Shown: piece after piece, positions 11,750 through 62,920 of the stretch
Layout: each line of letters starts with the position of its first letter
Numbering within the stretch: the first letter of the stretch is position 1
IMG/VR virus record: IMGVR_UViG_3300034170_000057
From: a virus
Taxonomy: Duplodnaviria > Caudoviricetes
Reading direction: 5' to 3' (one strand)
Length of the DNA stretch: 64,000 bases
Position numbers and translations under genes: made by a program
The notes under the pieces: generated by a model
Databases searched by the model: none
What the model was told of the DNA's origin: nothing
Seen by the model: the letters and a program-made list of their open reading frames with translations, nothing else

Positions 11750-12264
11750 CCGATCAAAAATTCAATGTTGAAATCGAACGTGAACCTGAAACGGATTACG
11801 TTGGCGAAGCTCGGTGGTCGCCGTGTGCTGGTTTGGAACGCGGAACAATCGAAAATATTGGTTATGTCAAAGTGGATGATAGCGAGGCTCCGACTACCGA
11901 CGACTGGGAACGTATCACGAAACTCAAAATGGAAGCGATGGGAATTTCTGAAGAATTCCTGACGGGTGACGTACAGCTTATTCCTTTCTTTGATGGGGGT
12001 TTTGATAACCGTGTCACCGTATCACCAGCACGCAAGACATTCATAGACGAAACATTCCGCCGTGTAGTCAAGCGTACTATGCGCCCCAGCACGCACTGTA
12101 TCGCGACCCGCAACGGCGTCATGGCGTTAGGTAAGCGTTTCCGTTCTCTGCGACTGGCCCGCGTGTGGTACAAAAACATGATGGGCAATATCGAAATCAA
12201 ATTCGCGGATAAACCCGTGGTGCCTGATGAATCTTGGGTGCCGTTGGCAGAATATGGGAAATAA
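11746..12264 (+). CDS. hypothetical protein, 172 aa (carries FRSLRLA motif)
   Basis: ORF track; ATGA overlap. Confidence 0.65.
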   Translation: MTDQKFNVEIEREPETDYVGEARWSPCAGLERGTIENIGYVKVDDSEAPTTDDWERITKLKMEAMGISEEFLTGDVQLIPFFDGGFDNRVTVSPARKTFIDETFRRVVKRTMRPSTHCIATRNGVMALGKRFRSLRLARVWYKNMMGNIEIKFADKPVVPDESWVPLAEYGK

Positions 12265-12754
12265 ACTCGACACACGAGGTTGGGCTATGGTCGATCTTTC
12301 CGACAAGATCCTTTCGATTTCCACGCCACGTAAAGAAACACCGTGTCCGTTCGGCGGGCTTCTACCGAAGGTTAACCGGCGTTGGACAATGTGGAGTTTT
12401 CCGCCCACGTACCCGATGGATTTGCCGCAGCGGAAATGTGTGAAAGTTTCGGACGGTGAAGAAGAAATCATCGAGAAACAGCCGGTCGATGTGAGCGGGC
12501 TGGCAATCACCGGGCGAATCGGTTACATGACCGGGATGGTAATCCACTGTGATGCGTTCAGCGAACCTACGCCGCAATCCAAATACTATTTCATGCACAA
12601 GCACACGCCGAAGGGCGTTGAAGTGATCGTGTTTGAACGTGGTGTGGATAATGTGCATCACATGTACGAGTACCGAAGCGCCCGCGCCGCACGCGTCGAA
12701 ATGAAACGCTGCCGCATTCCTGAATACGCTTTCTATCGGACAAAAAGAAAATGA
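12254..12754 (+). CDS. hypothetical protein (start re-called to ATG 12254)
   Basis: In-frame ATG close to the upstream stop. Confidence 0.6.
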   Translation: MGNKLDTRGWAMVDLSDKILSISTPRKETPCPFGGLLPKVNRRWTMWSFPPTYPMDLPQRKCVKVSDGEEEIIEKQPVDVSGLAITGRIGYMTGMVIHCDAFSEPTPQSKYYFMHKHTPKGVEVIVFERGVDNVHHMYEYRSARAARVEMKRCRIPEYAFYRTKRK

Positions 12755-13143
12755 AACGGCACGAATACATTACCATCTGCGACGAAACGAATAACCCGCC
12801 GCAAATGGTCGAAGAAAACAATCTGGCACTCGACTTTGTGATCACTACGCCGGAACCAGAACGTGCCCGCTATGAGTGCGTGTGTGACGCGATTTGCGAT
12901 AACCCGGACGAGGCACTCGCCATGCGTATTCGTTCTTACCTGTTGCGCGCACTCGGTCGCGAAATCAAACGCCTCGGACAAAATCCCGAAGTGATTTGCC
13001 AGCAGCTGAATATTTCGAACAATCGCCTTGACGATATTTTGCAGGGCCGCATAGAACGTCTGAGCCGCGACCAGTTGACCGGCATGTGCAAACGTATCGG
13101 CCTGAGCGTTGATCGCCTCATGATGGAGGTGATGGAAAAATGA
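12751..13143 (+). CDS. XRE-family HTH protein (HigA2/HTH_37-like C-terminal domain)
   Basis: EIKRLGQNPEVICQQLNISNNRLDDILQGRIERLSRDQL resembles the HTH_37 pattern (...ISxxRVSxLxxGKIxxFSxDxL). Confidence 0.6.
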   Translation: MKRHEYITICDETNNPPQMVEENNLALDFVITTPEPERARYECVCDAICDNPDEALAMRIRSYLLRALGREIKRLGQNPEVICQQLNISNNRLDDILQGRIERLSRDQLTGMCKRIGLSVDRLMMEVMEK

Positions 13144-13556
13144 TCGGAAATATCGCACCGGAAGGCCTGCACAAATGGCAGCTGAAATTCGAGAATGTTC
13201 CGGCAGGACTCGACCTTCCTGAAATGGAAGTGCTAGCGAATGGTGCGCCGGGTATGCAGGGTATTTGTATCCAGATGAACCCACCGAACGACTGGCCGCG
13301 CACCACACAAAAAACAATCATGTCCATTACAGAAAGCAGTGTGCCGGTCGGTGCATTTCTTTCGCGCTGGCATGCGGCTGTCAAAGCCTCACACGAGGCA
13401 CCTTATCGGATCTACTCCACACGTCGTGGGGCATTCGTGGAATATCGTTACCCTTCCTTCCGATTACAATTCCGTTCGTTGCGGCTAGCTCAAGTGTTTG
13501 CGAAAAGCCACGCCATCGACTGGAACATCGAAACACTTGAGTATAAAAATGACTGA
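13140..13556 (+). CDS. hypothetical protein, 138 aa (carries FRSLRLA motif)
   Basis: ORF track; ATGA overlap. Confidence 0.65.
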   Translation: MIGNIAPEGLHKWQLKFENVPAGLDLPEMEVLANGAPGMQGICIQMNPPNDWPRTTQKTIMSITESSVPVGAFLSRWHAAVKASHEAPYRIYSTRRGAFVEYRYPSFRLQFRSLRLAQVFAKSHAIDWNIETLEYKND

Positions 13557-14513: not shown

Positions 14514-14821
14514 ATGCAGTTGTCGAAATGGACCGTGACGAACAAATCGAAATGCTGGCCGACCGCCTGAATCCACTGGATGTTCCGATGTTCCGGAAGC
14601 GTAGCGTGTACACCCCGCCCGCTGAAGCCTTCGACGAAATTCAGTACGAACGGAATCTCGGTGATGATTTCAATATTTACCACATCAAAACAAACGATAC
14701 GCTGGCAGAGATTGCCCCGCGTTTTGGTGTGGATGTTGATCGGCTCGCATTTATCAATAATATCGCTGATCCGAAAATCATTTACTTCGGTTCGTGTCTG
14801 CGCCTGAGACACAAATCATGA
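14510..14821 (+). CDS. LysM-domain protein (start re-called to 14510)
   Basis: YHIKTNDTLAEIAPRFGVDVDRLAFINNIADPKIIYFGSCLRL is a canonical LysM. Confidence 0.85.
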   Translation: MNAVVEMDRDEQIEMLADRLNPLDVPMFRKRSVYTPPAEAFDEIQYERNLGDDFNIYHIKTNDTLAEIAPRFGVDVDRLAFINNIADPKIIYFGSCLRLRHKS

Positions 14822-15204
14822 CTTCACTCGAAAACATGAACGCGCGCCACCTACTGGGGCAAATTCAGAAGCATATTGAAGCCGTCATTTCAGCACCACG
14901 TGACGTAAAGCTGGAACGTGAAGAATTCGGCAAGAGCGTTGACGAATATATGGAAGACCTCAAGGATCGCCGTGTTATCCACGATCCTTTTACGGCGCAG
15001 GTTGTGACCTACACAATCCACGATATTAAAAATCGCTGCGTTGTACGCCTCAACGATGCAGACGGCAGAAAGATAAAAGACCTCACGTTGTATGGGCGCC
15101 GTCGCGCACACTGGGTTGGGCGCCAGCAACTCGGCAACGTCTACACGGAATTTCAGATGTGTATGCCTTCTAAGCGCATTCAGTTCACAATCAGGCTGGA
15201 TTAA
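14818..15204 (+). CDS. hypothetical protein (start re-called to 14818)
   Basis: ATGA overlap with the LysM gene. Confidence 0.6.
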   Translation: MTSLENMNARHLLGQIQKHIEAVISAPRDVKLEREEFGKSVDEYMEDLKDRRVIHDPFTAQVVTYTIHDIKNRCVVRLNDADGRKIKDLTLYGRRRAHWVGRQQLGNVYTEFQMCMPSKRIQFTIRLD

Positions 15205-18250: not shown

Positions 18251-19249
18251 TTGCAAATACAATCAAAATACATTGATGATAATCCAAATATCATTGATTT
18301 GAAAAATGCCCGAAACGCAAACGAAGTCGTAACGGTATTAACCCGGATCAACACGGCTACCAGCGTTTTGGTTTCGAAATTCAACCAAAAGAAGCTGTCA
18401 TTTCTCAAAGTATCCGATGGTGTGGAAGCTCTGACATTCTGCGTCGATTCATTGGTAGAACTCCGTTGTGCGCGTGCTGCTGCGCAAGAGTTTAGCGATT
18501 CGAAACGTGATCGCTGTTTCCAAATGATTGCCGCACAAATGCAGACCATTCGCGCTTTCCAGAAAACTCTTATGGATTTGATTGACAGTGTTTGTTCTCC
18601 GCGAATGGACGAACACCTGAACTACCTTTCGGAAATTGTTTATAGTTTCCTATCAAAGATCAGCCACACCACGCAGCTGCATATTCGTTTACCGGGCTAT
18701 CAAATGATTTGCTTCCGAACCGATAGCGGCATACAGGATAAAAACGGATTCGTTAGCGGGCCAGTCACCGTCAAAGTGACGTTGTACGGCGGGCAGTACC
18801 GCATTGCAATCCCGGATACCCCGTTTGTATTGTCCGAAGAAACCGCCGTCGATACGGCAACGGATGTGCAGACGTATATCAAGGGCAACCTTTCCGATTT
18901 CGAATACATCGACAAACCGGTGCCGAAAGACGACAAATTGCTCGCTTCCAAACTGGTGAAAAGCGTCGATGTAACTGACGACCGTCTTAACGTTGTGTTG
19001 AAACCGTTTGTGAAGCCGGAAGATATCAATAAGTTTCTGACGCAGGTTCTGCCGTATCTCAAGCGTGCGGTAGATTTGCCGAATACTGATATCATCCATC
19101 GCGTGTCGCAGTACGGAAACAATTTCATGATTTCCTTTATCGTAGGTAAGCGGAAAATCTACGATGTGCGATCCCTGAACAAGCTGACGAAACTGCTGAA
19201 CGTCGGCAAAACAGAAAAAGACAAACTCAACACAATCATGGAATCCTAA
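18251..19249 (+). CDS. putative virion structural protein, 332 aa (TTG start)
   Basis: ORF track; TAATTTAA site upstream; first gene of a co-directional block. Confidence 0.55.
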   Translation: MQIQSKYIDDNPNIIDLKNARNANEVVTVLTRINTATSVLVSKFNQKKLSFLKVSDGVEALTFCVDSLVELRCARAAAQEFSDSKRDRCFQMIAAQMQTIRAFQKTLMDLIDSVCSPRMDEHLNYLSEIVYSFLSKISHTTQLHIRLPGYQMICFRTDSGIQDKNGFVSGPVTVKVTLYGGQYRIAIPDTPFVLSEETAVDTATDVQTYIKGNLSDFEYIDKPVPKDDKLLASKLVKSVDVTDDRLNVVLKPFVKPEDINKFLTQVLPYLKRAVDLPNTDIIHRVSQYGNNFMISFIVGKRKIYDVRSLNKLTKLLNVGKTEKDKLNTIMES

Positions 19250-20434
19250 ATGAAACAAGACCTGAGTTTCATCCAGCGTATGACGCCGGAACAGGCTGCG
19301 AAATACTACAACAAACGGAAAAGTTCGTACCGCCGTCTGCTGTCGAAATTTACCAGCCTGTTGCGCATTTTCTTCGGCAAGTCTTCCCGTTCGAATATCG
19401 CCACTGCATCCTCGGTTAAAGTCCGTGAAGTGCGCGGCGGTGCGGATAGCAAAGGCGGTGCCGGTGGCTTTGGGCTGTCCGTTCAAAAGGTCAAGATGCC
19501 CGGCCCGCGCCAACTGCAAAAGAGCCTCGACGCATTGGAAATGCGCGAATCCATTGACGAACTCGACGCCATTATCGACAAGTGCAATGCCACCGAAAAT
19601 GAGGGCATGAAAGCACTGGTCAAAGACATGATCAAAAACCGCAATGCTCTGGTGGAAGTTTACACCGAAGCGCTGCACGCCATGTCCGAAATGTCCGATA
19701 GTGCAATCCCTGACGAAGTGGGCGACCTGTTCAAACGCATTCAAAAGTATTTCGATGGTGTGGAAAAAACCCACATCGCGGGACGCAAGAAAGAGCATGC
19801 GGAAGCGGTGAAAGCTGCTAAAGACGCGGGCCTGTCGGAACCCACGGAACCCGATGAGGATGAACTCGCGTACTACCTCAACATCGGCACCAAAGACGGC
19901 GGCGTTGATTTCGTATTGAACTGCGACGTAACGCACTGGCGCAATTTCAGCGAAGGTTTCCACAAGGCGCTGACCGTCGTGGTCACTGCGCGTCTGGAGC
20001 CAACCGAAACCGCGTTCGCCATTCGCACCTACGTGAACATTCTTGATCGTGTGGCGCTGCCGTATCTGTACAACCTCGGCACCGAAATCAAAGGCGAAAA
20101 CACGGCGGCAATCGCGAAAAACTTCGTGAGTAATATCGACCGTGAAATTGCCCGTCATGACGTGGTGATGTTCGCTGCAAAAGCCGACCTCGCTGGTCTG
20201 GACGCAACCGAAGTCACAACCCGCCTGTCTGCAATCAAAGGCGTGTCCGGCGTCACCGTCGAAGCGAACGAAGTTATTCTGGAATTCCCGGATAATGATC
20301 GCAATGTTCAAGAAGCAGTTTTGAGCGTTTTCCGTGGCTTGCCAGTAATCAAAGCGCTGATCAAGAAAGGTTATACGCAGGCTCTGACCACTATTGATCA
20401 GAACGTTCATTCCTACAGCCTGACGCTGAAGTAA
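19250..20434 (+). CDS. putative virion (head) protein, 394 aa
   Basis: ORF track; contains IATASS motif shared with head proteins. Confidence 0.55.
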   Translation: MKQDLSFIQRMTPEQAAKYYNKRKSSYRRLLSKFTSLLRIFFGKSSRSNIATASSVKVREVRGGADSKGGAGGFGLSVQKVKMPGPRQLQKSLDALEMRESIDELDAIIDKCNATENEGMKALVKDMIKNRNALVEVYTEALHAMSEMSDSAIPDEVGDLFKRIQKYFDGVEKTHIAGRKKEHAEAVKAAKDAGLSEPTEPDEDELAYYLNIGTKDGGVDFVLNCDVTHWRNFSEGFHKALTVVVTARLEPTETAFAIRTYVNILDRVALPYLYNLGTEIKGENTAAIAKNFVSNIDREIARHDVVMFAAKADLAGLDATEVTTRLSAIKGVSGVTVEANEVILEFPDNDRNVQEAVLSVFRGLPVIKALIKKGYTQALTTIDQNVHSYSLTLK

Positions 20435-21340
20435 TTGCACTACTTCATTTCCAAGCCGTTAGATTTTCGTCTTTCGGCTTGGCCCCGTGGCGGCGATAAC
20501 TACATCACCACCTATAACACCGACCGTTATTTGATCGACATTAAAATGGTTCTCGATTATGTCGAAGAATCATTGAAGAAAACGCCGATGGCGTTCATCT
20601 TTAAAACCACGTTTACGCTGGTGAACATCTGGTCGATGTACAACAACATGAGCGTGGGGCTTGTCGATATGCCCCCGAAAGAAGTCCGGCGCACAGGCCT
20701 TGTGTTTACGTTCGCCCGGACGCTACGGAATAATGCTGACGTTCCAACCGTCAAGCACCAAACGTGGATGCGTGGCTATACCGCCATATGGGGAACAGCC
20801 GATAATCAGTCCGCAGATTTCATTAGCATTTCGATTCCGTTGAACATTCTGACACGTGCGCGCATGCAGCAAATGATGGAACGTGATCAGCGGTATTTGT
20901 ACGACATTGCAGGCGGATACACGAAAGCGATTATCCGGCAAAAGATCGGTTACACCGGTGGCGTTGAATCCACTGCTGGAAAACTCCTTTACCAGAATAT
21001 CCCAAGAGCCATGTTCTATACGGCCATGGATGATTGGAAATATGTTCTGGATTTCTGGAAGCGTATGCCCGATTTGTTGCATGTAGAATGGACGCCGAAA
21101 TTCATTGAATATTACGTCCGCTTTATTGCACCGAATCTGCCAATGCGCCGACGCAGTAAGTATTATGCACAGTACGAAGGTGAAGCGCAGGACAGCATTC
21201 GCGAATTCATTCTGCGTTTTGTGCAAAACCAAATCGAACCCGAGGAAGCTGGCCTAGCCGCGCTGCTGCCTTTGGAAGAATCCGCATTGCAAGATATTGA
21301 GACGCTAGTTGTTCAACTGTCTCAAGGGGTTGTGGAATGA
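20435..21340 (+). CDS. hypothetical protein, 301 aa (TTG start directly after the upstream stop)
   Basis: ORF track. Confidence 0.55.
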   Translation: MHYFISKPLDFRLSAWPRGGDNYITTYNTDRYLIDIKMVLDYVEESLKKTPMAFIFKTTFTLVNIWSMYNNMSVGLVDMPPKEVRRTGLVFTFARTLRNNADVPTVKHQTWMRGYTAIWGTADNQSADFISISIPLNILTRARMQQMMERDQRYLYDIAGGYTKAIIRQKIGYTGGVESTAGKLLYQNIPRAMFYTAMDDWKYVLDFWKRMPDLLHVEWTPKFIEYYVRFIAPNLPMRRRSKYYAQYEGEAQDSIREFILRFVQNQIEPEEAGLAALLPLEESALQDIETLVVQLSQGVVE

Positions 21341-22554
21341 CCACCGTTCACGAAGGCGCAACCTGTACAATTATCGAAGAGTTTTTCGACGACTTCGACG
21401 ATCCGGTAATCCCGACGGAAAATAGTCCGGCGCCGCTTGTTCGTTTGTTCGACACTGACAAATCGGTAATTGCCGAGGTTTACGCAAAGCCGTATCAAAG
21501 CCAGCCCGGTCACTGGATTGCAGATTTACCGATCCCGAATATGAACCTGCGTGACGCCGTTGATTTGGTTGCACGCTGGACGTTTTCTAGTGACGTTGGG
21601 CAGTATCAGGCACGTTCAATTATCACCGTGGAACCGGCGAGCGTTGGGCGTGAATCTGACGTGGTTATTATTTGCGGACGTGACACGCGCATGCAGTTGA
21701 GTGTGCCCGTCACGTACAAGCCGCCAGTAGCCGCGAAGAAAGCCGACATGGCCGCTGGCACCACCGCGAAGAAAGCAAAGGAGGGTGATCTATTAACGGT
21801 TTCTCTCTACTACAACAACAAAACGGTTTTCGCTGATTGGGACGTGGAAGACAAAGCAATTAAAGTCGAACGTCAAAAGAATCGTACCGTTATCGACATG
21901 CCTGCAATTATCGGTAATCCGCAAATGTTCCCTCTAACGATGCTGGTGGATCACACCCCAGCGCGTAAGATTGCCAAAACTACGATGACTTACAAAGTGT
22001 GGGCAATTACCCCGCAAATCCTGACGGCCAGCCGCCAGCTTGAGGATTACATTAACCGTGCGCGGATCGCGAACATTATTCCTGAATTGGAATACACGCA
22101 ATCCGATATCATGGAATATCTCTCGCGTGGGTTGAGTTTCTTCAACGGATTGCAGCCGAACATTACGAACTTTACCGGCACCAACATGCAAGGGCCTTTG
22201 CTCGATGCATGGCTGACTTGTTCGTGTATCTACGCGCTCGGTTCGCAGAACTTGGCCGAGGGTAGTTTGGCATTTGATTTCGGTGGGCAAACAGTCAGCT
22301 TGAACGTTGACCGAACCCCTGCAATCGAAAGCGCATTGGGCCGTATTGATGCGCAAATTGAAAGCCAAGTAAAACCGCTGAAAAAATTGTTAGGTCGTGC
22401 TGGTGCTTTGGGCGGCGATGGCAGTGTGGGCGGTGGCTTCATTGATTCAAGTCGTGCGTTCGGTATCCTTGGGATTTCGAATACTGCGATGACGCGTATA
22501 CCGGGTTATCCGGGACGTGGATCGACTGGCGGATTCTTCCGCAATTTCTTTTAA
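21337..22554 (+). CDS. putative virion protein, possibly head-tail adaptor/neck-like
   Basis: Helical C-terminal ~130 aa ending in a Gly-rich tail, reminiscent of neck/adaptor proteins; function is inference. Confidence 0.4.
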   Translation: MTTVHEGATCTIIEEFFDDFDDPVIPTENSPAPLVRLFDTDKSVIAEVYAKPYQSQPGHWIADLPIPNMNLRDAVDLVARWTFSSDVGQYQARSIITVEPASVGRESDVVIICGRDTRMQLSVPVTYKPPVAAKKADMAAGTTAKKAKEGDLLTVSLYYNNKTVFADWDVEDKAIKVERQKNRTVIDMPAIIGNPQMFPLTMLVDHTPARKIAKTTMTYKVWAITPQILTASRQLEDYINRARIANIIPELEYTQSDIMEYLSRGLSFFNGLQPNITNFTGTNMQGPLLDAWLTCSCIYALGSQNLAEGSLAFDFGGQTVSLNVDRTPAIESALGRIDAQIESQVKPLKKLLGRAGALGGDGSVGGGFIDSSRAFGILGISNTAMTRIPGYPGRGSTGGFFRNFF

Positions 22555-22573
22555 CGTGACGTGGGGCATAAAG

Positions 22574-22960
22574 ATGACCGAACAACCGATGACCGAACAG
22601 CAACTCAAAGATAAATATGATGTAGAAAATTGCACGTATTTGCAGCGTCTTCCGGAAGCCCTAGAAAAGGGCGTCATTGTTGACGATACCATTTTCCAAA
22701 ACATGGAAGAGGCGGCCACGCTTCTTAGCAAATCTAAATACGCGCTGCTTCACAATAAACCGTGGTCTGACATTATCGGTTCCAATGCGTGTGCGGCTGT
22801 ATTTGATCCGCTTACGAAATACTCATTGGTAATGGATGGAAGCCTCGGTCAAATGCTCGGTTGTCAGTTGTATACCGATGGTTTCATGGCTCCGCATTTG
22901 AAAGATAAAAGCCCGGAAACAATGGGCAAGGTTATCTTCGTGCCCCGCGACACTGAATAA
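22574..22960 (+). CDS. stand-alone paralog of part of the major capsid protein (128 aa; start re-called to 22574)
   Basis: 50-aa ungapped alignment to the MCP at 61820-62920 with 28 identities (WSDIIGSN...DP.TKY.L...G.LG...G.QL.TDGF.AP). Confidence 0.8.
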   Translation: MTEQPMTEQQLKDKYDVENCTYLQRLPEALEKGVIVDDTIFQNMEEAATLLSKSKYALLHNKPWSDIIGSNACAAVFDPLTKYSLVMDGSLGQMLGCQLYTDGFMAPHLKDKSPETMGKVIFVPRDTE

Positions 22961-22963
22961 ACG

Positions 22964-22971
22964 TAATTTAA
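22964..22971 (+). promoter_or_regulatory. motif B TAATTTAA
   Basis: Intergenic, before 22999. Confidence 0.55.
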
Positions 22972-22998
22972 TCATACATCCTCTGGAGATTCACCAAC

Positions 22999-23847
22999 AT
23001 GACTTTTAATGCCGCCAAAGCCCGTGATGCTCTGGTTACTTCCGGTAAGACCGCAGTAACCAAAGTCGAAATTCGCGAAGCATTCCCAATCGACGACCGT
23101 TTCATGCGTATCGTTGCCGTTGCCTCTGCTGGCGCCAGCGCCGAACAGGTTTACGCTGGTATCAAATCGCAATTCAAGGGCGTTACCCCGATTCACGGTA
23201 CGTTCGTTTCGCTCGCCGCTGAACCGACCCTGCACCACTTCGAAGGTATCGTCGGCGTCGTTTCCGAACGCGTTGTCGTGAACGAAGAAACTAAGGCCGC
23301 TAATTACAAAGCTGTCGCCGCCAACATGTACATGGACGCAGACGAAAATCTGTGGACTCTGCGCAAAACCCAAACCGGCGAAGTAATGGTTAAATCCATC
23401 TGCGCCGACGACGCTCTGGTAATGCAGCAACTGCTGGCCGTTGCCAAAACCGACCTGAACGATTTCAACAACAAAAATCTGCACATGCAATCTGCACAAG
23501 ATCGTGCAATGGTGCAGGGCGGTGATTTGATCACCTACGTTTCGCAACAGTCGGCTGACCTGCAAATGGCAATCGCCTGCGCCGCAATCGACAACGAAGA
23601 CGGTTCGCCTACTCCGGAAATTTTCGTTGTGCGTCCGAACGGTCAAACCGAAACCGTCCACCGCGAAATGATCGTTGTTACTGCTGGCGCTGTGCAGCTG
23701 GAAGCGGAAGAGGCGCAAGATTCCATCGCCGTTGCCTCGGCTGCCGACGTTGATCGCTTCGCGGCCTTCTACAGCCGCGTGTATGCCCGCCGTCCTGCGT
23801 TCTTTGAAGAATTCATGACCCGCGTTCGCGCTCACGTGTTCTTCTAA
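22999..23847 (+). CDS. putative abundant virion/head protein, 282 aa
   Basis: Own TAATTTAA site, GGAGA SD and terminator; codon usage like the MCP; several AVAS motifs. Confidence 0.6.
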   Translation: MTFNAAKARDALVTSGKTAVTKVEIREAFPIDDRFMRIVAVASAGASAEQVYAGIKSQFKGVTPIHGTFVSLAAEPTLHHFEGIVGVVSERVVVNEETKAANYKAVAANMYMDADENLWTLRKTQTGEVMVKSICADDALVMQQLLAVAKTDLNDFNNKNLHMQSAQDRAMVQGGDLITYVSQQSADLQMAIACAAIDNEDGSPTPEIFVVRPNGQTETVHREMIVVTAGAVQLEAEEAQDSIAVASAADVDRFAAFYSRVYARRPAFFEEFMTRVRAHVFF

Positions 23848-25729: not shown

Positions 25730-26142
25730 GCCTTAGTACCGCTCTGGATGGGATCGAAAGCATCCTGACCATTATCAAGAAGGGCGATGCGCCGCCTGAG
25801 AAAAAACTCGAAGCAATTAAAGACTTGGGCGAGATTTTGCGCAACGATATTCAGGATTTGGCCGACGCTGTTTACTCGGACTACGTACCTGAATTGCCGC
25901 CGATTTCATTCGACATGGAACTGGCGGTAAAGGATCTTCTCGAAGCCTTCCGTAAACAGGTATACAACAACCTCTACTGCTACTACGATTTGTCGCCATT
26001 CAGAGACGAACCCGATCCATACGTGCGTGTCGCAATTGCAACTGCGCTTGTGAAATATGCGCAGGAACAAAAACGCGAACCGAACTCGACGTGGGCCGCG
26101 ATCATCCAAACTGAAGGCGTGATTTCCGAGGGTGACGAATGA
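25726..26142 (+). CDS. hypothetical protein, 138 aa
   Basis: ATGA overlaps at both ends. Confidence 0.65.
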   Translation: MSLSTALDGIESILTIIKKGDAPPEKKLEAIKDLGEILRNDIQDLADAVYSDYVPELPPISFDMELAVKDLLEAFRKQVYNNLYCYYDLSPFRDEPDPYVRVAIATALVKYAQEQKREPNSTWAAIIQTEGVISEGDE

Positions 26143-29100
26143 ACCGTGCAATGTGGAAACAGAATCCAATCGCAGACGTGCTGCGTAAAAAACGTCTGGA
26201 ACTGCAACAGCAGGACGAACTGGCCGAACAGCTTGCCGCCTACGCCCGCGCCAATGGCGAAGACGATGACGAAAATGATGATGAAAACGATGACGGCGAT
26301 GACAGTTCCGAATTCGTAAAATCTATTCGTACCATTTCGCTCGAACCTGCGCGCAACATGGAATACGAATCCTTTTTCTATCCGAAAAAAGAACGTAACT
26401 TCTTGGTTCCTATTCTGGAATCGTTGAGCGACGTTACCGCAAATATCAACTTGTTTTTCCGGTTCATGCGTCTGTGCATGCAGAGCGCCAACCAGCTGTC
26501 GCAGTACAGTGAAGAGCAAGTCGAAGCGCGAATCTCTTCGATTTTTGTGCAGATTTTCCAATCGAAACGTACCTCCAGTTCTGTCGAACAGGACGTGGTG
26601 GCTTTCCTGCGTGCATCGCGCCGGACAGCGCATTCGTTTCACAACGTTTACCGTTCGAAGCGCTACAACGAAGGCCTCGATATCGTTTTGATGGGTGCAG
26701 GTGCTGACCCTGAGAAAGAAGGTCTGCCCGCGCCTTACTTCGGTGTGGAAGACTTCAAACTCGGTCGCAGCGAATATCTGGAAAGCAACAACACGCACCC
26801 GATGACGGATTTTGCCCGCCGTGGCAAATGGCAGTCTCCAATCGGTGAACGCATTATCGCCGCCGCTCGTGAAATCCACATGTTTTTGTGGGGCACCGTT
26901 GCCAGCAGCGAACGCATGATCCACCGTGGCATTCCGTTGAATACCAAATTCAGCGATATTGAACGCATTTGGGTGAAGAACACTGGCCTGAAATTGCCGA
27001 CCGCTGGTGAACTCATTACCGACATGGTAGTGAGCAACCCGTTTGCCGAACAGTTCCTGCAAATCGAAGTAATCAAGCAGCCAAGTCAGGCTGTGAAAAC
27101 CTTCACTGAAAAAGTTCGTAATACACGGCCAGCATTCAACGAACAGCAGTTGTCGCCCACCGCGATCAATTCGAAAATCGAAGACGCGTTGAACGGTGCT
27201 AATCCGAAAATCAGTCCTGAATCGGAATTGCTGAACGTTACGCTGCGTGCCTCGATCCGCTTCACGTTGGAATCCGACGTGGCGCATTTCGTTTCGCAGA
27301 CTCCGGAAAGCGCACGCCCTTCGCTGACCCGCACAAACTCGTGGTTCTCCCTGTACATCGCGCAGGTTCTGCGTGCCAAAGTATCCGGCACCGGTAAGGC
27401 GTACAAAGTCACGAACACTTCCGCAATTCGTATGGAACACATTCCGCGTTATGCCACCAGTGCATCCACGCTGAAACGAGTCCCTGCGCTGCGCGAACAG
27501 TTTGGCTACGTCGTCGAAAAAACCAAAGGCAACGCGGAAAACATGTTCATCACGCCGCAAGGCACGATGGCCGTTCGCCCAAGTATCGACGCACTGCAAA
27601 AAACTACGCTGGCTGAAGACTTCGAGAAAACTTCCGAAGAACTTCTGGAATTGCTGAGCCGCAATGAAATTCCACTGGCTGCTTTCCAAGACGACTACCG
27701 CGCCGAGAAATGGCCGTGGGTTGACGCGCAAGATTTGGAACGCATGCAGGAACTGGTAAAAGCACTGGATAACTTCGCAGGTTGCTCGCTCGGTTTCGAT
27801 TGGGATTTCGGGATCAACATTCAGGCAACTTCCACACCGGGCCGTACCATTACTTCGACTTCGGTCGGATCGGTAACGCCGGATTCTTTGGCTATCGCTG
27901 ACTGGCTTGGTTTTAACCTTGCCAACGAAGGCGAGAAACCAATGAAGCGTTCGTTTTCGCAGTCCATGTACACCCTGAGTCACGGTGAACATACTGCGTG
28001 GGCGTACAAGCGCGCAGAGGAACTTTACGGCGCAGCTGACGATCACCTGAAGTTTGCAAAAAGTGGCCTCGTTACGAATCTGGTCAATCTCTACATGCGG
28101 ATTGCCTACGTCGATAACAAAGCGCCACAACTTCCGGAATTGTTGGCCGGTGCAATGCGTGCCCTCAACTACCAGAAATTGCCGACCGAACAAGGTTTCG
28201 ATTTCAGTCAGGATTACACCAAATATCTGACGCAAGAAGGCACGTTGATCGACCGCCACAAGGGCAACGTTCGCGGGATTATTCTCGGCCTGCTGGAAAC
28301 AGCAATGGACATGGCGAGCGGCGCACAAGGCACGCACCTGTGGAATGAAACTTTCGAGAATTTGCGCAACGGTGATAAAACTCCGCGTGCATCGGAAGTC
28401 TCGCTAGAACTGGAAAACCATCCGGACTATTTCAACAGCACGATTTCGACCGCTGCTGAATTTGCCCGTCTGTATCGCTATTTCGGCGGCCAAGTTTTCA
28501 AGCAGATTCTGGACGCAATTAACAGCGTTGAAATCGAACACTTTGCAAACGCCAAGGGCGGCGAGCAAATTGTCGAACTGGGTGAAATGCCAGACAGCCC
28601 CGGTCGTCAGTATTCGATCAGCCTCACATTGCAGCCGAACGCCACGCTGTACAAAGACGTTCTGCCATTCGCTGTAATGCTTGGGAAATACGCGCCGAAC
28701 TCGGAAACGATTTTCGCGGAAGCAGCAGAGCAAGTTGAGTCGATTAAACCTGATCCGTCGTTTAGTTCCGACGATATCAAGTTCCCCGGCATGATTGGCG
28801 AAGACCGTGCGATTTTCCCGCACCAAGAAGACGTGCAAAGTTCGCTGCGTAAAAAGAATCCGCCAAACTTCGCGATTCTGGCACTGGCTCCCGGCGGTGG
28901 TAAAACCGGCCAAGGCATTATCGACATTGCTTGCCTCATGGCAGACATGAAAGAAGCGGGCCTCGTTGTACGTCCGCTGGTGATTTGCCCGAATGGTCTG
29001 ATCAACACGTGGTGCGAGGAAATGAAATATTTCCAAGGCGCCAATTGGAACGCTTTCCCGATCAGTTCCGACGTGCTGTCGCGCTGGACTGCCAAGAATG

Positions 29101-32100
29101 CACCGGGTGAAAAATTCCTGAGTGATCTTGCGGTTAACGCGCCACCGAACACGATTTTTATCAGTTCGATGACTTTCATTCAGGGCCGGAACACTCGCGT
29201 TTGTATCGGTAATGCGCAGGTTAACTTCTCGCAAAACCTTGAGCTGGTCCGTCGCCTCGGTTGCAACTATGTGGCAATCGACGAATCGCACAACCTGAAA
29301 TCTTTCAAATCTGCGCGTCACCGTGCGGTAAAAATTCTGACCTCCTCGACCACCGTCAAATGGCTGCGCCTGCTGACTGGTACGATCATGCCAGACCGTG
29401 CGAAAGATATCGAAGGGCAAATCGCGTTGAAAGCACCGCACGTTTTCCGTGCTGGTGATATCGCGAATATCAAGCCCGATCAGGAAGCGGAAAAAGACAG
29501 CGGCCAAGTGAAAATTGGTGATCGCATCATTACCACTTTTACACCGTTGAACGGTAAACGTGCGGTCGATAAACTCGGTCACTATATTTCGTTTATCGTG
29601 AAAGAGAAAAAAGACTGGGCCTACATGCTGCCGTCCGCAATCGAACGTTTTCACCCGGTTCCAATGGTGGACTATGAGGGTTCCGACGGTACGAGCGCGG
29701 TAGAAATCGAACAGCAAAAACTGCACGAACAGCTTTATCGTTTGGTACTCGACCGCACGTTGGAAGAAATGGAACCTTTGCTGCGCCAGAAAGCGAAAGC
29801 TGAAAAGCTCGCAGATAAAGGCGACGGCGACGACGAAGAGGACGAAGACGATAGCGACGGTAAAGGGCCGGATACCACCGATAACGACGCTGACTTTGCT
29901 GGCGACAAAATCAAACAGAAATTGTGGGAGAAAAACATCGCGCGTTTTGAACGCCTGATTATCTGCCCGCAGGAAGACGAAGCCTACGACGAAGTTTTCG
30001 GCTCGATGGGTGAAGGTTTTGTTTCGCGAAAAGCGAAGTACATCGCGAACCTGACTGCGCAACACTTTAACCCGCAGAAATGGAAACGTGGCGAGCGTTA
30101 TATCGAACTCGACCTCGTTGATTTCGAAGGTCAGCTGTACGTCGCACGAAAATATAATCCGGGCGAAACTCGTGTTGCAATTCCGGATGGTGCGAAGGGC
30201 AAAACCCCAGTCGAGGCTCCAGATTATTGGAAGCCGGAACCAAAGGGCAAGCTGATCATTATCACGCGTTACAACGCAAGCGCACGCGCAATTTACGAAG
30301 CGCTGCCGTCGAACTACCAGTCGATGGCTGTGAAATTCACCGGTGATGAACCGGATCGCGTGAAGGCTTTCAACGATTTCAAAACTGATGATCGCGTACA
30401 AATTCTGATCGCGAACGAACAAGGCATGTCCGAAGGCCATAACCTTCAATTGGCAAGCCGGATGATTCGTGCGGAAGCCCCGTGGGGGCCGGGTGCATTG
30501 GCTCAAACTGCTGCGCGTGTATGGCGTCCTGATGCGAAGGGTGCAATTGCAGCGGCGAAGGGTGAAGGCGGTCTGACCCGTGACGTGGTTTATCTGGATT
30601 GGGTACTCGCTGACAACACTATGGAAGTGCCGAAATTGGCGCGTGTTATTTCCAAGACTTTTGGTGTTGCACGAATCACCGAAGCATCGAATCCGTTGTA
30701 TCAGGAATTGTTGGCTTCCGTGGTTGTTCCAACGGAAAAAGAAGACGCACGTTTGTCGCTTAGCGTGGATATGCTCGCTTCCACTGCTGGCCTCGACGAC
30801 GAACCTTTTAACGAAATGGAAGACGCGTATCGTCGCCTCAACGCCGTCGAATCGAAAGAGTTCGCAGAAATGCGCAACACGATGAAAGCGGATATGTTGC
30901 CGATTGAAGGCGCTCCAAATCTGGAAGGCTCGGCGCGTATGGAACTTGTTCCTTTCGTTGCGAACCAGCCAATCCCCGACCAAAACAATTGGGGCCTGTT
31001 GAACGTCGAAGTTCTGATGCGTGACGCGGAACTGTTGAAAAACTATCGCGAAACTCTTCGCACTAAACCGGTTGTTACGGAATGGGGCACAGGGCGTATC
31101 GTTGGGTTCAACACTCGTGGCGGTAAGCTGTCGAGTTTGATTGTGAACTTGAAAAACCCACCATCCGGTATGGCTGGGCGTATCACCATTCAAACGAACA
31201 TGGCCTACATTGCACAACGCAATATCACGCCTGAGCAAGAAGCACGTTTCTTTGAAGTGTCGCTCGCTGGTACGGATACCGAAGAAAAACGCACAGCCTC
31301 TCGCCAAAAACGTTTGGAGGATCAGCAGAAGAAACAAGCTGAAGCCGAAGACCGTGAAGCACGGATCAAGAAAAGTCAGGAAACCGACAAGATCCGCGTT
31401 ATCAAGAAAGAGGCGAAAGACGGCGCGGTTCGCGAAGACAACGAGAAAAAAGGTCGCCCAATCAACGAGGGTATTTACGATACTGGCGGTACGGTGAAAA
31501 TCGGCGGGGGCAAGAAACTCAAAGCCACCGACAACCCGAAAGTCGGCGTCGTTGTGGAACAGGAAGAATTCCCGGAAGAGGCAGCAGAGGTTCCGGAAGT
31601 TTCGCTGTATCCTGCCTACTACCACGGGTTCGCAACACTGGAAGCAATTCCAGAAGGTGGCGATCCGCAGTTGAAGAAAGCTGGCTTCCAATTTACTCCG
31701 GCCTTCGCGTATATCAACGTTTCGAACAAGAAGAAATTCCACGCGATCTACGATTGGGTTTACGAAAACTTCGAAGTGAACGACAAATTGAACGACTTGT
31801 TTATGTCGATCAACAACGCGTTCGACGAAGGTCAGAAAAATACCCACAAGTTGTGGTATCGCTTGGAACTGGCACCGGTTTCTGAATTGCCAGCGTTCTT
31901 CAGCGTGCAGAAACGCATGAGCAGTAATCGTCGGGCCATTCGCGTGTTCCCGATCTTTACCGAAGAACACGTGATGTTGTGCGTGGACTTGCGGACTAAC
32001 CCCGGCATCATCAAGCACATCGGCAAAGCTATTCCGAATGCTGGCGCCAAGTGGATGAAATCTGACGGTGAATGGATGTACTTCGGGAAGAATAAAACCG

Positions 32101-32210
32101 ACCTGAAATCCAAGATTGCCGAAGTCGTGCGCAGCGGCATTAGCGTTTCGAACAAAGATCAGGCTCTGAAAGAGTTGTCCGAACTGACCTTCAAATATAA
32201 AACCCGCTAA
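26139..32210 (+). CDS. giant SF2 (SNF2-like) helicase/translocase, 2023 aa
   Basis: Q-motif FPHQE, Walker A LAPGGGKT, Walker B VAIDESH, motif III LTGT, motifs V-VI SEGHNLQ...W.P....QTAARVWR. Confidence 0.85.
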   Translation: MNRAMWKQNPIADVLRKKRLELQQQDELAEQLAAYARANGEDDDENDDENDDGDDSSEFVKSIRTISLEPARNMEYESFFYPKKERNFLVPILESLSDVTANINLFFRFMRLCMQSANQLSQYSEEQVEARISSIFVQIFQSKRTSSSVEQDVVAFLRASRRTAHSFHNVYRSKRYNEGLDIVLMGAGADPEKEGLPAPYFGVEDFKLGRSEYLESNNTHPMTDFARRGKWQSPIGERIIAAAREIHMFLWGTVASSERMIHRGIPLNTKFSDIERIWVKNTGLKLPTAGELITDMVVSNPFAEQFLQIEVIKQPSQAVKTFTEKVRNTRPAFNEQQLSPTAINSKIEDALNGANPKISPESELLNVTLRASIRFTLESDVAHFVSQTPESARPSLTRTNSWFSLYIAQVLRAKVSGTGKAYKVTNTSAIRMEHIPRYATSASTLKRVPALREQFGYVVEKTKGNAENMFITPQGTMAVRPSIDALQKTTLAEDFEKTSEELLELLSRNEIPLAAFQDDYRAEKWPWVDAQDLERMQELVKALDNFAGCSLGFDWDFGINIQATSTPGRTITSTSVGSVTPDSLAIADWLGFNLANEGEKPMKRSFSQSMYTLSHGEHTAWAYKRAEELYGAADDHLKFAKSGLVTNLVNLYMRIAYVDNKAPQLPELLAGAMRALNYQKLPTEQGFDFSQDYTKYLTQEGTLIDRHKGNVRGIILGLLETAMDMASGAQGTHLWNETFENLRNGDKTPRASEVSLELENHPDYFNSTISTAAEFARLYRYFGGQVFKQILDAINSVEIEHFANAKGGEQIVELGEMPDSPGRQYSISLTLQPNATLYKDVLPFAVMLGKYAPNSETIFAEAAEQVESIKPDPSFSSDDIKFPGMIGEDRAIFPHQEDVQSSLRKKNPPNFAILALAPGGGKTGQGIIDIACLMADMKEAGLVVRPLVICPNGLINTWCEEMKYFQGANWNAFPISSDVLSRWTAKNAPGEKFLSDLAVNAPPNTIFISSMTFIQGRNTRVCIGNAQVNFSQNLELVRRLGCNYVAIDESHNLKSFKSARHRAVKILTSSTTVKWLRLLTGTIMPDRAKDIEGQIALKAPHVFRAGDIANIKPDQEAEKDSGQVKIGDRIITTFTPLNGKRAVDKLGHYISFIVKEKKDWAYMLPSAIERFHPVPMVDYEGSDGTSAVEIEQQKLHEQLYRLVLDRTLEEMEPLLRQKAKAEKLADKGDGDDEEDEDDSDGKGPDTTDNDADFAGDKIKQKLWEKNIARFERLIICPQEDEAYDEVFGSMGEGFVSRKAKYIANLTAQHFNPQKWKRGERYIELDLVDFEGQLYVARKYNPGETRVAIPDGAKGKTPVEAPDYWKPEPKGKLIIITRYNASARAIYEALPSNYQSMAVKFTGDEPDRVKAFNDFKTDDRVQILIANEQGMSEGHNLQLASRMIRAEAPWGPGALAQTAARVWRPDAKGAIAAAKGEGGLTRDVVYLDWVLADNTMEVPKLARVISKTFGVARITEASNPLYQELLASVVVPTEKEDARLSLSVDMLASTAGLDDEPFNEMEDAYRRLNAVESKEFAEMRNTMKADMLPIEGAPNLEGSARMELVPFVANQPIPDQNNWGLLNVEVLMRDAELLKNYRETLRTKPVVTEWGTGRIVGFNTRGGKLSSLIVNLKNPPSGMAGRITIQTNMAYIAQRNITPEQEARFFEVSLAGTDTEEKRTASRQKRLEDQQKKQAEAEDREARIKKSQETDKIRVIKKEAKDGAVREDNEKKGRPINEGIYDTGGTVKIGGGKKLKATDNPKVGVVVEQEEFPEEAAEVPEVSLYPAYYHGFATLEAIPEGGDPQLKKAGFQFTPAFAYINVSNKKKFHAIYDWVYENFEVNDKLNDLFMSINNAFDEGQKNTHKLWYRLELAPVSELPAFFSVQKRMSSNRRAIRVFPIFTEEHVMLCVDLRTNPGIIKHIGKAIPNAGAKWMKSDGEWMYFGKNKTDLKSKIAEVVRSGISVSNKDQALKELSELTFKYKTR

Positions 32211-36496: not shown

Positions 36497-37635
36497 AATT
36501 GATCGAAGGTAACGAACTAGAATTCGAGTGTAACGGTAAGGAATTTGCCTCAACACTTTCCAACATTATCAACGTGACGATGTACATCAAAGCGGACGAT
36601 GCCAAGTTTATTTTGGCGACACAAAAAGGCAAAGGTATTTTCCTGATTGGTTCGTCCACTGATGCACTGGCCTGTGCAAAGATCGGTGGTACTGCCACCA
36701 AATCGGGCACTGTGAAAATCGACGCGCCAACCCTGATCGGCCTGTTGAAATCTCGTGGTGACTGCCTGTTCAAAACGGGCGGCGGTCAAATCGCTTTCAA
36801 GGAAAAGAAAGGCAACTTCAAAGCGACGATCAACGTTACGGAATTCGACGCTGACGATATCCAGATGTTGGAACACCAATTGGTCGGCAAGAAAACCGAT
36901 CCAATGCCAAAGGATGTTGTGACGAAGTTGCGCGATGCTGTGAAGCGTGTGCGTCTTCAGGATTTCTATGGATCGTCGGAACTCCCGATCATCTTTGAAA
37001 TCGGCACAAAAGTCATGCGCGTGTACTGCCACGACGAACACCACGTGGCACTGTTCAAAACGAAAGTGAAGAACAACGCCCCGCTGAAAACTGCACTGCC
37101 TGCCAAAGCGTTTTCCGTGATCGAAAAGTTCATCCAATCCGACAAGATTAGTTTCTCGGTGGACTCCGGTCGGTTCCGTGCAACTGGTGCTGATTTCACC
37201 GTGTCGATTCCCGAAGGCCAGTTGCTTTATGGCGAAGTCGGGCAGGCGGTGATTTACAACAAAGCACTAGATGAAATGAAAGTTATGAGCGCCATGACCT
37301 TCGACACGAAAGCTGTCGATGTGGTTTCGAACATGGCGGTTCTGACTGACGGCGAAACGAAAATGGCGCTCGCTCTGGAAGAGGGCCACGTGAAAATGAG
37401 CGTGCAGGGCAAAGGCGGTCGTGTATCCGATGAATTCGAAGCCAACGTAACCGGGAAGGCCATGGATATTCGTGTTGACCCACGGATTTTTATGGATCTT
37501 TTTAATAAAGTATCCGGTATCGAAATCGACATGAACTTCTACAAGGTGCCCGGTGCAATGTCGGCCTATCGCCTTGTGACAAAAGTCGATGGCGGCACCC
37601 TGACTCTGGTCGGCACATATGATGAAGCGAAGTAG
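36493..37635 (+). CDS. dnaN: sliding clamp, DNA polymerase III beta (DnaN)-like
   Basis: 380 aa with a three-domain beta-alpha rhythm, C-terminal IRVDPRIFMDLF like DnaN I.FN..YL.D; next to the polymerase, with a DnaX-like loader in the window. Confidence 0.7.
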   Translation: MKLIEGNELEFECNGKEFASTLSNIINVTMYIKADDAKFILATQKGKGIFLIGSSTDALACAKIGGTATKSGTVKIDAPTLIGLLKSRGDCLFKTGGGQIAFKEKKGNFKATINVTEFDADDIQMLEHQLVGKKTDPMPKDVVTKLRDAVKRVRLQDFYGSSELPIIFEIGTKVMRVYCHDEHHVALFKTKVKNNAPLKTALPAKAFSVIEKFIQSDKISFSVDSGRFRATGADFTVSIPEGQLLYGEVGQAVIYNKALDEMKVMSAMTFDTKAVDVVSNMAVLTDGETKMALALEEGHVKMSVQGKGGRVSDEFEANVTGKAMDIRVDPRIFMDLFNKVSGIEIDMNFYKVPGAMSAYRLVTKVDGGTLTLVGTYDEAK

Positions 37636-38065
37636 CATTAGCCCGATATTTAGTCTGGCTGACACGTTCACCCACACCGTGCAGCAGATTGAAACTTTCG
37701 AAGATTTTGGATCGGCCCATGACGGCCACCATATCGGGCTGTTCTTCCGGAAACTAGTTGATCAACCAATGATGATCGACTATGAAAATCCTGAGCCGCT
37801 GAATCGCTTTTGCAAGATGTACAATTTCGTGAATAAGCGCCGTTCTGTCTACGGGCATTTGTTTGTAATCTCGGATGTTTCCAAGGTGGAACTGGCGCCT
37901 CACAAGATGGTGATTTCCTGTAACAAAAAGGAACGCTACGATTCGTCGCAGCACCCGATCACGACCTACCGACAAAAACTGTTAATATTCAAGAGCAGCA
38001 CAGGTTCCGTGCTGGCCCTGAGTGGCAACGCAGTATCTCCTTACCTTGTGACTGAGGCTGTTTAA
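37619..38065 (+). CDS. hypothetical protein, 148 aa
   Basis: ORF track. Confidence 0.55.
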   Translation: MMKRSSISPIFSLADTFTHTVQQIETFEDFGSAHDGHHIGLFFRKLVDQPMMIDYENPEPLNRFCKMYNFVNKRRSVYGHLFVISDVSKVELAPHKMVISCNKKERYDSSQHPITTYRQKLLIFKSSTGSVLALSGNAVSPYLVTEAV

Positions 38066-46716: not shown

Positions 46717-46725
46717 GGAGTCGTC

Positions 46726-49053: not shown

Positions 49054-49057
49054 CGTG

Positions 49058-49093: not shown

Positions 49094-49119
49094 CCGTTGA
49101 ATATGGAGAATATTTTCTC

Positions 49120-61783: not shown

Positions 61784-61819
61784 TCGCGGATCATTCGAAA
61801 ATCTTTGGAGATACAAAAC

Positions 61820-62920
61820 ATGTTGAACAAAATTCAAGGCGCCCGGATGGTACTGGCTGGTACTGGTGATCCGCTCGAATCCCTGCGTTATTCGAAAGGT
61901 GGTGAACTGGCCCTGTCCGCCAGCACCGGCGAATTCAACGCCAGCTCGCAAAAAGACCTCGCGCTGCAAATCGGTCGTTTGATGCAGGCTGTACAAAGCG
62001 GCGTGATCGTTCCTGAAGCTCAACAAATGGCAACCGCTTCGACTCGCGAAGATCGTCGCGATATCATGCGCGAAGCAATGGCTTCCGACGAAAACTGGAA
62101 AGCACTGGGCGCGAACATTGCGCAACAGGTTTACGAGCAATCCGAGCGCGACGGTTTCCTGCGTAAACTTTCGCAAGGTAACACCCTGCGTCAGGGCGAA
62201 GTACAACGCGTTCCAATGCCTCCGCATGATTCGATGGCAGTTGTTGCCACCGGCCCTGCTGGCGTCGGCTACCAGAACATTCGCGCACGTCAATTCCTGC
62301 CTGCCGAATTCGAAATCATCGCCAACGTTCGCGTAAACGCGCTGGACATGGAACAGGTTTCGGGCGATCTGCTGGAACACGCTTACAACGACGCGCTGCA
62401 ATCCATGATGGTGCAGGAAGACCGTCTGTGGAAAATCGCAGCTGACGCAACTGTCGGCATGATGAACCCAATCGAATACATCGCGGGCGAACTGACCACC
62501 AAAAACCTTGGTCGTCTGCGCACCGCTGTGACCGACTGGAACCTGCCCGCAACCACCGCGATCATTTCGAACGATTACTGGTCCGATATCATCGGTTCGA
62601 ACGATTTCGCAACCATGCTCGATCCGATCACCAAGTACGACTTGGCTCTGAACGGCCAGCTGGGTACGCTGGTTGGTCTGCAACTGCTGACCGATGGTTT
62701 CCGCGCACCGAACCAAAAGGTTCTGGATCGTGGCGAAATCTACGTTGTTGCCAGCCCTGAACACCACGCCGCGTACAGCACCCGTGGCGGTATCCAATCC
62801 CGTCCGGTTGACTACGCGCACGAAGGTTCGACCGCCAAAGGCTGGATGCTGTCCGAAGCGTTCTCGTTCGTTCTCGCCAACAACCGTTCCGTAGTGAAAG
62901 GTAAGCGTCTGGTTCGTTAA
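61820..62920 (+). CDS. major capsid protein (HK97 fold; start re-called to ATG 61820, 366 aa)
   Basis: Size, position after scaffold/decoration genes, strong codon bias, GGAG SD; E-loop-like LRQGEVQRVP, backbone helix LLEHAYNDALQSMMVQEDRLW, C-terminal GWMLSEAFSFVLANNRSVVKG. Confidence 0.8.
   Translation: MLNKIQGARMVLAGTGDPLESLRYSKGGELALSASTGEFNASSQKDLALQIGRLMQAVQSGVIVPEAQQMATASTREDRRDIMREAMASDENWKALGANIAQQVYEQSERDGFLRKLSQGNTLRQGEVQRVPMPPHDSMAVVATGPAGVGYQNIRARQFLPAEFEIIANVRVNALDMEQVSGDLLEHAYNDALQSMMVQEDRLWKIAADATVGMMNPIEYIAGELTTKNLGRLRTAVTDWNLPATTAIISNDYWSDIIGSNDFATMLDPITKYDLALNGQLGTLVGLQLLTDGFRAPNQKVLDRGEIYVVASPEHHAAYSTRGGIQSRPVDYAHEGSTAKGWMLSEAFSFVLANNRSVVKGKRLVR

Follow-up and report, generated by a model that had tools for sequence, protein, structure and literature searches.

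The window, by which is meant the whole 64,000-nucleotide stretch of virus record IMGVR_UViG_3300034170_000057 (Caudoviricetes) that was analysed, is part of a jumbo phage akin to the Pseudomonas phages HRDY3 and Lu11 (megablast, 76–78% identity). At 22574..22960 on the + strand it carries a gene for a 128-residue protein, called mini or mini-MCP here, that is a stand-alone paralog of one part of the major capsid protein (MCP) of the same phage. As shown by profile comparison and by a tree of the common core, the mini family appears to go back to an ancient event in which part of an MCP gene was captured, and to have formed since then a separate lineage of single, tandem and fused forms. Full-length MCP paralogs are already known; a family of paralogs that consists of a single MCP domain is apparently undescribed. 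Few viral proteins have been studied as thoroughly as HK97-fold capsid proteins, yet no selected family made of the axial domain only was found in the literature searches. A full-text search for truncated, paralogous or decoy phage capsid proteins returned nothing equivalent and no description of a phage decoy derived from an MCP. An initial annotation, made from the letters of the DNA, had likewise named no described system of this form.

The mini gene is an open frame whose start methionine is shared by the homologues, and its product is an acidic protein of 14.4 kDa with an isoelectric point of 4.8. The full-length MCP of the window is encoded 38.8 kb downstream, at 61805..62920 (+). It has 371 residues and the HK97 fold, and matches phrog_2522 ('major head protein') over profile positions 3–317 with an expectation value (E) of 3e-115. 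From residue 81 onward it matches a solved HK97-fold capsid protein, the Gp27 MCP (PDB 6wkk, E 1.7e-7). The beginning of this match at residue 81 fits the proteolytic trimming that has been reported to remove roughly 20% of the MCP of phage PaBG (PMC7412058). The intact open reading frame (ORF) of 128 residues and the distance of 39 kb from the MCP, both given in the initial annotation, were found to be correct.

The homology between the two proteins is strong and confined to one region. BLASTP aligned mini residues 57–110 with MCP residues 252–305 without gaps (30/54 identical, E 1e-19), and the 28/50 identity claimed initially falls inside this alignment. Profile-profile comparison by hhalign of the mini-family alignment (A2) with an alignment of 36 MCPs (A3) extended the match to mini 53–127 and MCP 248–319, with a probability of 99.4% and an E of 8e-22 over 72 columns; the weak continuation pointed out earlier (KVIFVP in mini, EIYVVA in the MCP) lies within this range. 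The paired segments are encoded at 22730..22954 (+) in mini and at 62546..62761 (+) in the MCP. When mini alone was compared with PHROGs, it matched only the MCP family phrog_2522 (E 6e-9, profile positions 208–255 of 318). The match does not run the full length of phrog_2522 and is limited to MCP columns 248–319 of 371, so that about 20% of the MCP (72/371 residues) is represented in mini. The core motifs of the A-domain, W-x-D-I-I-G, D-P-x-T-K-Y, G-x-L-G and T-D-G-F, are present in mini and are kept across both A2 and A3; along mini 53–127 they read W-x-x-I-I-G-S, D-P, G-x-L-G and T-D-x-F, followed by V-I-F-V. Taken together, these results bear out the proposal that mini is a stand-alone paralog of part of the MCP.

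The first 52 residues of mini (22574..22729, +) are family-specific according to the alignments A1 and A2. They comprise helices 8–19 and 21–32, strand 34–37 and helix 44–53, and carry a conserved C-x-Y-F / RLPEALEKG motif. This part showed no similarity to the MCP at the profile level, the hhalign match covering residues 53–127 only, and local alignment of the N-terminus with the spine-helix region of the MCP did not score above shuffled sequences. A BLAST match of mini 23–50 with MCP 56–80 (E 0.007) is probably due to chance, as 2/1000 shuffles reach its score and hhalign does not recover it. Searches of Pfam found no family at E ≤1 beyond noise for mini, and none for the MCP or for 10 distant small relatives. 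The cement models PF22758 (Phage_cement), PF23982 (XM1_gp53) and PF23968 (Phage_cement_3) gave no sequence match to mini. A language-model atlas search gave cement-protein clusters as the closest neighbours with a name, at a best score of 0.81, which is not meaningful because shuffled proteins reach it one third of the time.

Mini and the MCP segment agree at 57% of nucleotide positions and at 35% of third codon positions, and their longest identical run is 12 nucleotides. The kinship is therefore old and has been kept at the level of the protein. Recent duplication of the MCP gene is ruled out by the overall and third-position identities, and gene conversion with the MCP by the overall identity and the short longest run. 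A third candidate, a copy of the target of a homing endonuclease, was rejected on the same two values; in addition, the nearby HNH gene is also found in relatives without the mini gene.

The structure of mini was predicted by AlphaFold with 23 family sequences, which gave a compact model with a predicted local distance difference test (pLDDT) score of 92.4 and a predicted template modelling score of 0.83. This run replaced one with 7 close sequences, which was unusable (pLDDT 51). In the model, helices 8–19 and 21–32 are followed by an alpha/beta unit with strands 34–37, 54–59, 77–79, 90–94, 97–101 and 119–124. An ESM Atlas search by shape listed ten rows, one row per family set, and all 10/10 listed rows were capsid proteins or proteins with capsid Pfam families; the matches align 103–122 of the 128 mini residues with template modelling (TM) scores by query of 0.53–0.63. 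A fold search of BFVD returned Lu11 gp106 (TM 0.86) and the Motura MCP (E 5e-4). Solved HK97-fold capsids were matched often, with ranges that span the A-domain and in some cases also the spine helix, but these matches are weak (Z ≤4.7; LME-1, lambda gpE, 3bqw 188–289, 80alpha 173–247 and HK97 199–331). Foldseek comparison of the model with PDB, AFDB clusters and Swiss-Prot returned nothing at E ≤0.001. The part common to mini and the MCP is assigned to the HK97 A-domain, as the initial annotation had suggested, because of the strong sequence homology, and the Atlas result supports the assignment; the matches to solved structures are weak. In the model the N-terminal helices of mini might tentatively be taken to stand in for the spine helix.

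Mini and the MCP of the window, which is of the phrog_2522 type of the Lu11/PaBG group, are thus alike in their homologous segments, and the predicted fold of mini superposes best on MCP models. Propeptide, N-arm, E-loop, P-domain sheet and C-terminal strands of the MCP are all missing from mini, whose 52 N-terminal residues and conserved C-terminal motif are particular to it; mini also evolves faster and is dispensable. Of the parts said initially to be absent, the N-arm and the E-loop are indeed lacking; the absence of the backbone helix is doubtful, because helices 8–32 align opposite the region of the spine helix (HK97 199–331), although weakly (Z 2.5). Since MCP residues 1–247 and 320–371 have no counterpart, mini would be unable to build a shell, in agreement with the earlier proposal: the arms and the P-domain needed for lattice contacts are missing, so neither capsomers nor a shell would be expected to form. 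The predicted complex of mini with the MCP scored 0.01 against a mark of 0.32, a result that gives no verdict and counts neither for nor against binding.

Mini is not a one-off case but belongs to a broad and old family. Among 1.84 billion representatives, a search with the family profile returned 104 hits, close relatives of mini among them. The hidden Markov model of A2 matches mini (P0001) end to end (E 1.5e-50), and 32 hits (30 proteins), including both repeats of Lu11 gp106, cover the model from position ≤20 to ≥115. Mini conforms to the family in its length (about 110–170 residues, tandem forms apart), in the C-x-Y-F helix of its N-terminal part, in its A-domain core and in a strand of the V-I-F-V-P-R type at its C-terminus. 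Hits of 112–151 residues have the same architecture of N-terminal C-x-Y-F helix, core and terminal I-x-F-V-P-R strand. Besides gp106, P0011 and P0012 are two-domain members (P0012 by tandem duplication), and in P0015 a long lysine-rich tail is fused on. Further groups of small proteins have only the core motif in common with the family; among these, P0044 and P0078 lie on contigs too short to inform on context. The MCPs among the hits are proteins of 350–390 residues matched at about 245–305. One hit, the WD40 protein P0022, was discarded as a repeat-driven false positive.

A tree of the 73-column core places 25/30 rows that match the full-length model on one side and all 39 MCPs as a clade on the other, with weak support, and a single origin of the family is not rejected (approximately unbiased test, p-AU 0.196). 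Mini of the window groups with its syntenic relatives and the first gp106 repeat (Shimodaira-Hasegawa-like approximate likelihood ratio test, SH-aLRT, 95) and not with the MCP of the window. The idea that mini is a recent copy of the MCP of its own phage does not agree with this placement. Distant members of 112–118 residues are surrounded by rows of small genes, in company with a DNA methylase, thymidylate-synthase-like genes and a DUF7487 gene that recurs. On contigs L011, L020, L021, L022 and L023 these members lie near a DUF7487 (PF24308) gene of 164–167 residues, and some of the contigs also carry a methylase, thymidylate-synthase-like or Tad2-like gene; the Tad2-like gene (L022 2795–3475) is 4.5 kb from the distant family member. 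The contigs with 112–118-residue members had no match among cultured phages. The context of these members is accessory rather than that of a head module.

In the window, the mini gene occupies a slot between two other genes. The left border is formed by the upstream neighbour (21337..22554, +), a 405-residue protein of phrog_17327 ('head-tail connector / head-to-tail joining', E 1.5e-174), and the right border by the downstream neighbour (22999..23847, +), a 282-residue protein of phrog_17573 (E 1.3e-81). The gaps that flank the mini gene are 19 bp (upstream) and 38 bp (downstream), and its guanine-plus-cytosine content of 45.7% is lower than that of the flanks (51–54%). Six relatives of mini, 127–169 residues long and 55–80% identical, came out of a search across 5.8 billion proteins. 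Four of these were traced to contigs of 22–314 kb, where the gene always lies between the phrog_17327 and phrog_17573 genes and all copies are intact. The connector-family gene of the left border is syntenic in all relatives. In Lu11 the slot after the connector gene holds gp106, which is 49% identical to mini over residues 7–125. A stretch of 50–60 bp without a gene lies between the two neighbours in HRDY3 and in Erwinia phage Y3, and in PaBG the slot is occupied by an unrelated M15 peptidase, gp196 (L014 7240–7680), which indicates that the junction after the connector-family gene is a hot spot for insertion of accessory genes. A remote HRDY3 match from the profile scan, XDJ15055.1, was not confirmed by hhalign (probability 9%). 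Judged by these gene contents, mini is dispensable.

Pairwise ratios of nonsynonymous to synonymous substitution (dN/dS) were 0.18–0.38 for the mini gene versus 0.04–0.24 for three neighbouring genes, and ratios for the N-terminal, core and C-terminal thirds of mini were 0.19–0.34. The initial annotation had named a frameshifted or absent ORF with dN/dS near 1 in relatives as the mark of a decaying duplication. The ORF was instead intact in five syntenic metagenomic relatives, with the low ratios given above, though the slot lacks the gene in HRDY3, Y3 and PaBG. By these ratios, mini is a working gene under selection and not a decaying duplicate. That it is a decaying partial duplicate of the MCP, or a functionless chance ORF, is scarcely credible: the absence of the gene from the slot in some relatives would agree with decay, but every syntenic relative examined has an intact copy, the family has about 30 members with an alignment signal sufficient for a model of pLDDT 92, and third codon positions are randomised relative to the MCP while protein similarity is kept.

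The mini gene also changes faster than its surroundings. Contigs L003 and L008 are 98–100% identical in the flanks; identity drops to 0.4–0.8 over precisely the length of the mini gene and is back at 1.0 where the gene ends. At the protein level the two mini alleles are 56% identical versus 99–100% for the neighbours. By these profiles, phages with almost the same genome swap the mini gene as a cassette with sharp borders. The MCP of the window has 92% identity with the HRDY3 MCP and 86% with the Lu11 MCP, and as estimated from such identities mini is evolving several times faster than the MCP. Two C-terminal forms alternate among the alleles, ...VIFVPRDTE and ...VIFVLHDAFKEFWNDELKQFVI. A biofilm metagenome contains a 98.5% identical relative with the mini gene. 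In a rhizosphere metagenome run (X3, window 22578–22890), a related phage at a depth of about 34 has a diverged allele in the slot, and the same run contains a 372-nucleotide contig with a depth of 3.2 that matches the allele of the window at 97%. This sample may hold two slot alleles.

Among 50,697 cultured-phage records, Lu11 is the sole carrier of a family member, and its MCP and that of the window both belong to the phrog_2522 type. The Lu11 member, gp106 (YP_006382636; L002 7548–8411; NC_017972 77477–78340), is a 287-residue protein in which the mini domain is duplicated in tandem. It has its family and its slot after the connector gene in common with mini, and differs from it by the two domain copies and a C-terminal FKHLWNAELKQFVI tail. 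The protein is named 'major head protein' in RefSeq and 'hypothetical protein' in GenBank. The true Lu11 MCP is encoded at 37459–38553; judged by the alignments, the RefSeq name is wrong, an artefact of partial similarity, and gp106 is not the MCP. The correction matters because the name can mislead phage taxonomy based on MCPs.

The mini gene lies within a tightly packed, co-oriented block (18251–23847). The first gene of the block (18251–19249, +) encodes a 332-residue homologue of PaBG gp191, and a 2023-residue SNF2-type protein encoded at 26139–32210 (+) is the homologue of PaBG gp202, a 221-kDa giant helicase; gp191 and gp202 have both been reported as virion proteins (PMC7412058, Table 1). 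These homologues suggest late expression of the block, and by analogy the whole block may encode packaged proteins. The block with its giant SNF2 protein recalls the Dar system of phage P1 with its giant DarB, whose packaged Dar proteins sit on the inner capsid surface (PMC12810830). The 16-mer described as a Lu11 'middle/late promoter' had no match in the window at ≤3 mismatches. Scans for sigma-70 promoters and terminators were at or near the level of shuffled sequence, and no promoter is claimed. A peat metatranscriptome library contains the region at 100% identity in contigs only; the library is possibly the source sample, or the contigs derive from carried-over DNA, and they are no proof of transcription.

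The function tentatively preferred for mini, at somewhat less than an even chance, is mimicry: as a soluble protein it would present the likeness of the MCP axial (A) domain to a partner that changes fast and is probably a host factor. Mini would bind something that normally contacts this domain. This partner would be variable and would not belong to the capsid; the most plausible candidate is a host protein, such as an immune sensor, by which unassembled MCP is recognised or used, and mini would titrate or block that protein. CapRel is triggered by MCP, and Lit by the Gol peptide of T4. Such capsid-sensing defences show unassembled MCP as a surface read by host immunity, a surface that a soluble MCP domain would meet; Avs-type STAND sensors likewise bind MCP folds (bioRxiv 10.64898/2026.01.04.697583). 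Because the MCP is nearly invariant and mini is dispensable, fast-evolving, duplicated and swapped as a cassette, the partner is more likely to be variable and to lie outside the capsid. The lower guanine-plus-cytosine content of the gene, the rhizosphere alleles and the accessory setting of the distant members, in one case near a Tad2-like gene, point the same way, as circumstantial context. The initial annotation had put forward a decoy, a capsomer or vertex plug or size regulator, and a chaperone-like assembly factor as candidate roles. The evolutionary pattern leans towards a role of the conflict type and does not settle it. Several points weigh on the other side. The variability is not specific, since decoration proteins such as T4 Hoc, which is dispensable and hypervariable, exist. 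T4 Gol is a free MCP fragment that switches the Lit defence on rather than blocking it, so a decoy is mechanistically non-trivial. The context of PaBG virion proteins and the gaps of 19 and 38 bp in an apparent late operon fit a capsid-associated role equally. In addition, the Z scores of the solved capsids tie with that of the Pelota/eRF1 C-domain.

Binding to the capsid is a close rival to mimicry towards a host partner, though rather unlikely in itself. Mini would then be a non-essential, variable minor head component that docks on its own MCP, at capsomer centres, as an inner-surface anchor for packaged proteins or as a transient modulator of assembly. The tight co-oriented packing of its block, the syntenic origin of the PaBG virion proteins gp191 and gp202 (PMC7412058) and the head-tail connector family of the upstream neighbour agree with such a role. 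Adjacent A-domains also form the central contacts of HK97-type capsomers, as stated for P1 (PMC12810830), and tandem two-domain forms would suit side-by-side packing. However, mini evolves far faster than the MCP that it would bind (about 49–56% versus 86–92% identity), the slot is without mini in HRDY3, Y3 and PaBG, and the distant 112–118-residue members lie in accessory clusters rather than in head modules. It is unlikely that the A-domain was recruited as a scaffold for a job unrelated to the capsid, for example the binding of nucleic acid or of a host or phage protein, with the residues shared with the MCP serving for folding only. The common W, DP, G-x-L-G and T-D-x-F do look like determinants of the core fold across the MCP family, the segments most conserved in the mini family (RLPEALEKG, PHLKDKSPET-GKVIFV) are not conserved in MCPs, and the Pelota/eRF1 C-domain and L7Ae-like alpha/beta proteins score as high as capsids in the fold searches. 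All non-capsid fold matches are insignificant, however (E >0.05, Z ≤4.7), the sole cultured carrier has an MCP of the same type as the window, and an identity of 56% over 54 residues is high for mere retention of a fold when third codon positions are randomised. Inhibition of capsid assembly in co-infecting related phages or satellites, by a dominant-negative effect, is very improbable. A truncated subunit with one oligomer interface and no lattice-forming arms would be the classic design for it, and the alleles that are exchanged as cassettes, two of which the rhizosphere run may hold, would agree with competition; but with MCPs 86–92% identical it is hard to envisage how the MCP of a competitor could be discriminated from the own one, and there is no evidence of satellites.

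Known systems offer partial parallels to mini. The vertex protein gp24 of T4 is a full-length MCP paralog with the whole HK97 fold that is built into the shell. Both go back to duplication of a capsid gene whose copy selection has maintained in another role, but mini differs in that one domain is kept and that it could not be built into the shell. Decoration and cement proteins (PF22758, PF23982, PF23968; T4 Hoc and Soc) are head-associated proteins that, like mini, are small, often dispensable and variable; unlike mini, they are not derived from the MCP itself. If mini does act as a mimic towards host sensors, it would represent a new class of counter-defence and help to explain the way in which bacteria sense capsid proteins. 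If it is docked on the capsid instead, it would reveal a new route by which head accessory proteins are made out of the shell protein itself. Both readings lend themselves to direct tests, since a cultured Pseudomonas putida phage, Lu11, carries a member of the family.

Other ORFs in the window also resemble parts of virion proteins. An ORF of 175 residues at 12227–12754 (+), in an accessory island between sbcC-like and sbcD-like genes, carries a remote MCP core motif (PVDVSGLAITGRIGYMTGMVIHCDAFSEP). It matches the mini-family model with an E of 2.6e-5 (hmmsearch), and hhalign pairs it with the MCP alignment and with the mini alignment at probabilities of 72–75%; possibly this is another small protein of capsid origin, far more diverged than mini. 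The adjacent small ORFs at 12751–13143 (+) and 13140–13556 (+) resemble the C-terminal part of the tail sheath, which is encoded at 44426–46066 (phrog_23). Residues 4–36 of the first product align with sheath residues 492–524 (14/33 identical, E 3e-7) and are followed by a helix-turn-helix domain (phrog_2339), and residues 14–91 of the second align with sheath residues 428–508 (26%, E 6e-6). The ORF at 14794–15204 was considered as a further sheath-like candidate and rejected, as it has no similarity to the sheath of the window.

The accessory-island ORFs with the MCP-core-like motif and the sheath-like pieces keep open a bolder and decidedly unlikely extension of host-directed mimicry, in which jumbo phages of this group would keep free-standing copies of virion modules as soluble mimics that blunt host sensors of structural proteins. 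The set would comprise mini (22574–22960), possibly the remote copy at 12227–12754 and the C-terminal sheath pieces at 12751–13556, and the cassette-like turnover of mini alleles would be the footprint of an arms race. In a different part of the window, three consecutive genes at 46072–50787 (+) encode tail-type proteins of 214, 775 and 573 residues that are mutually paralogous (27–29% identity, E 1e-17 to 1e-24; phrog_13325 / phrog_14098).

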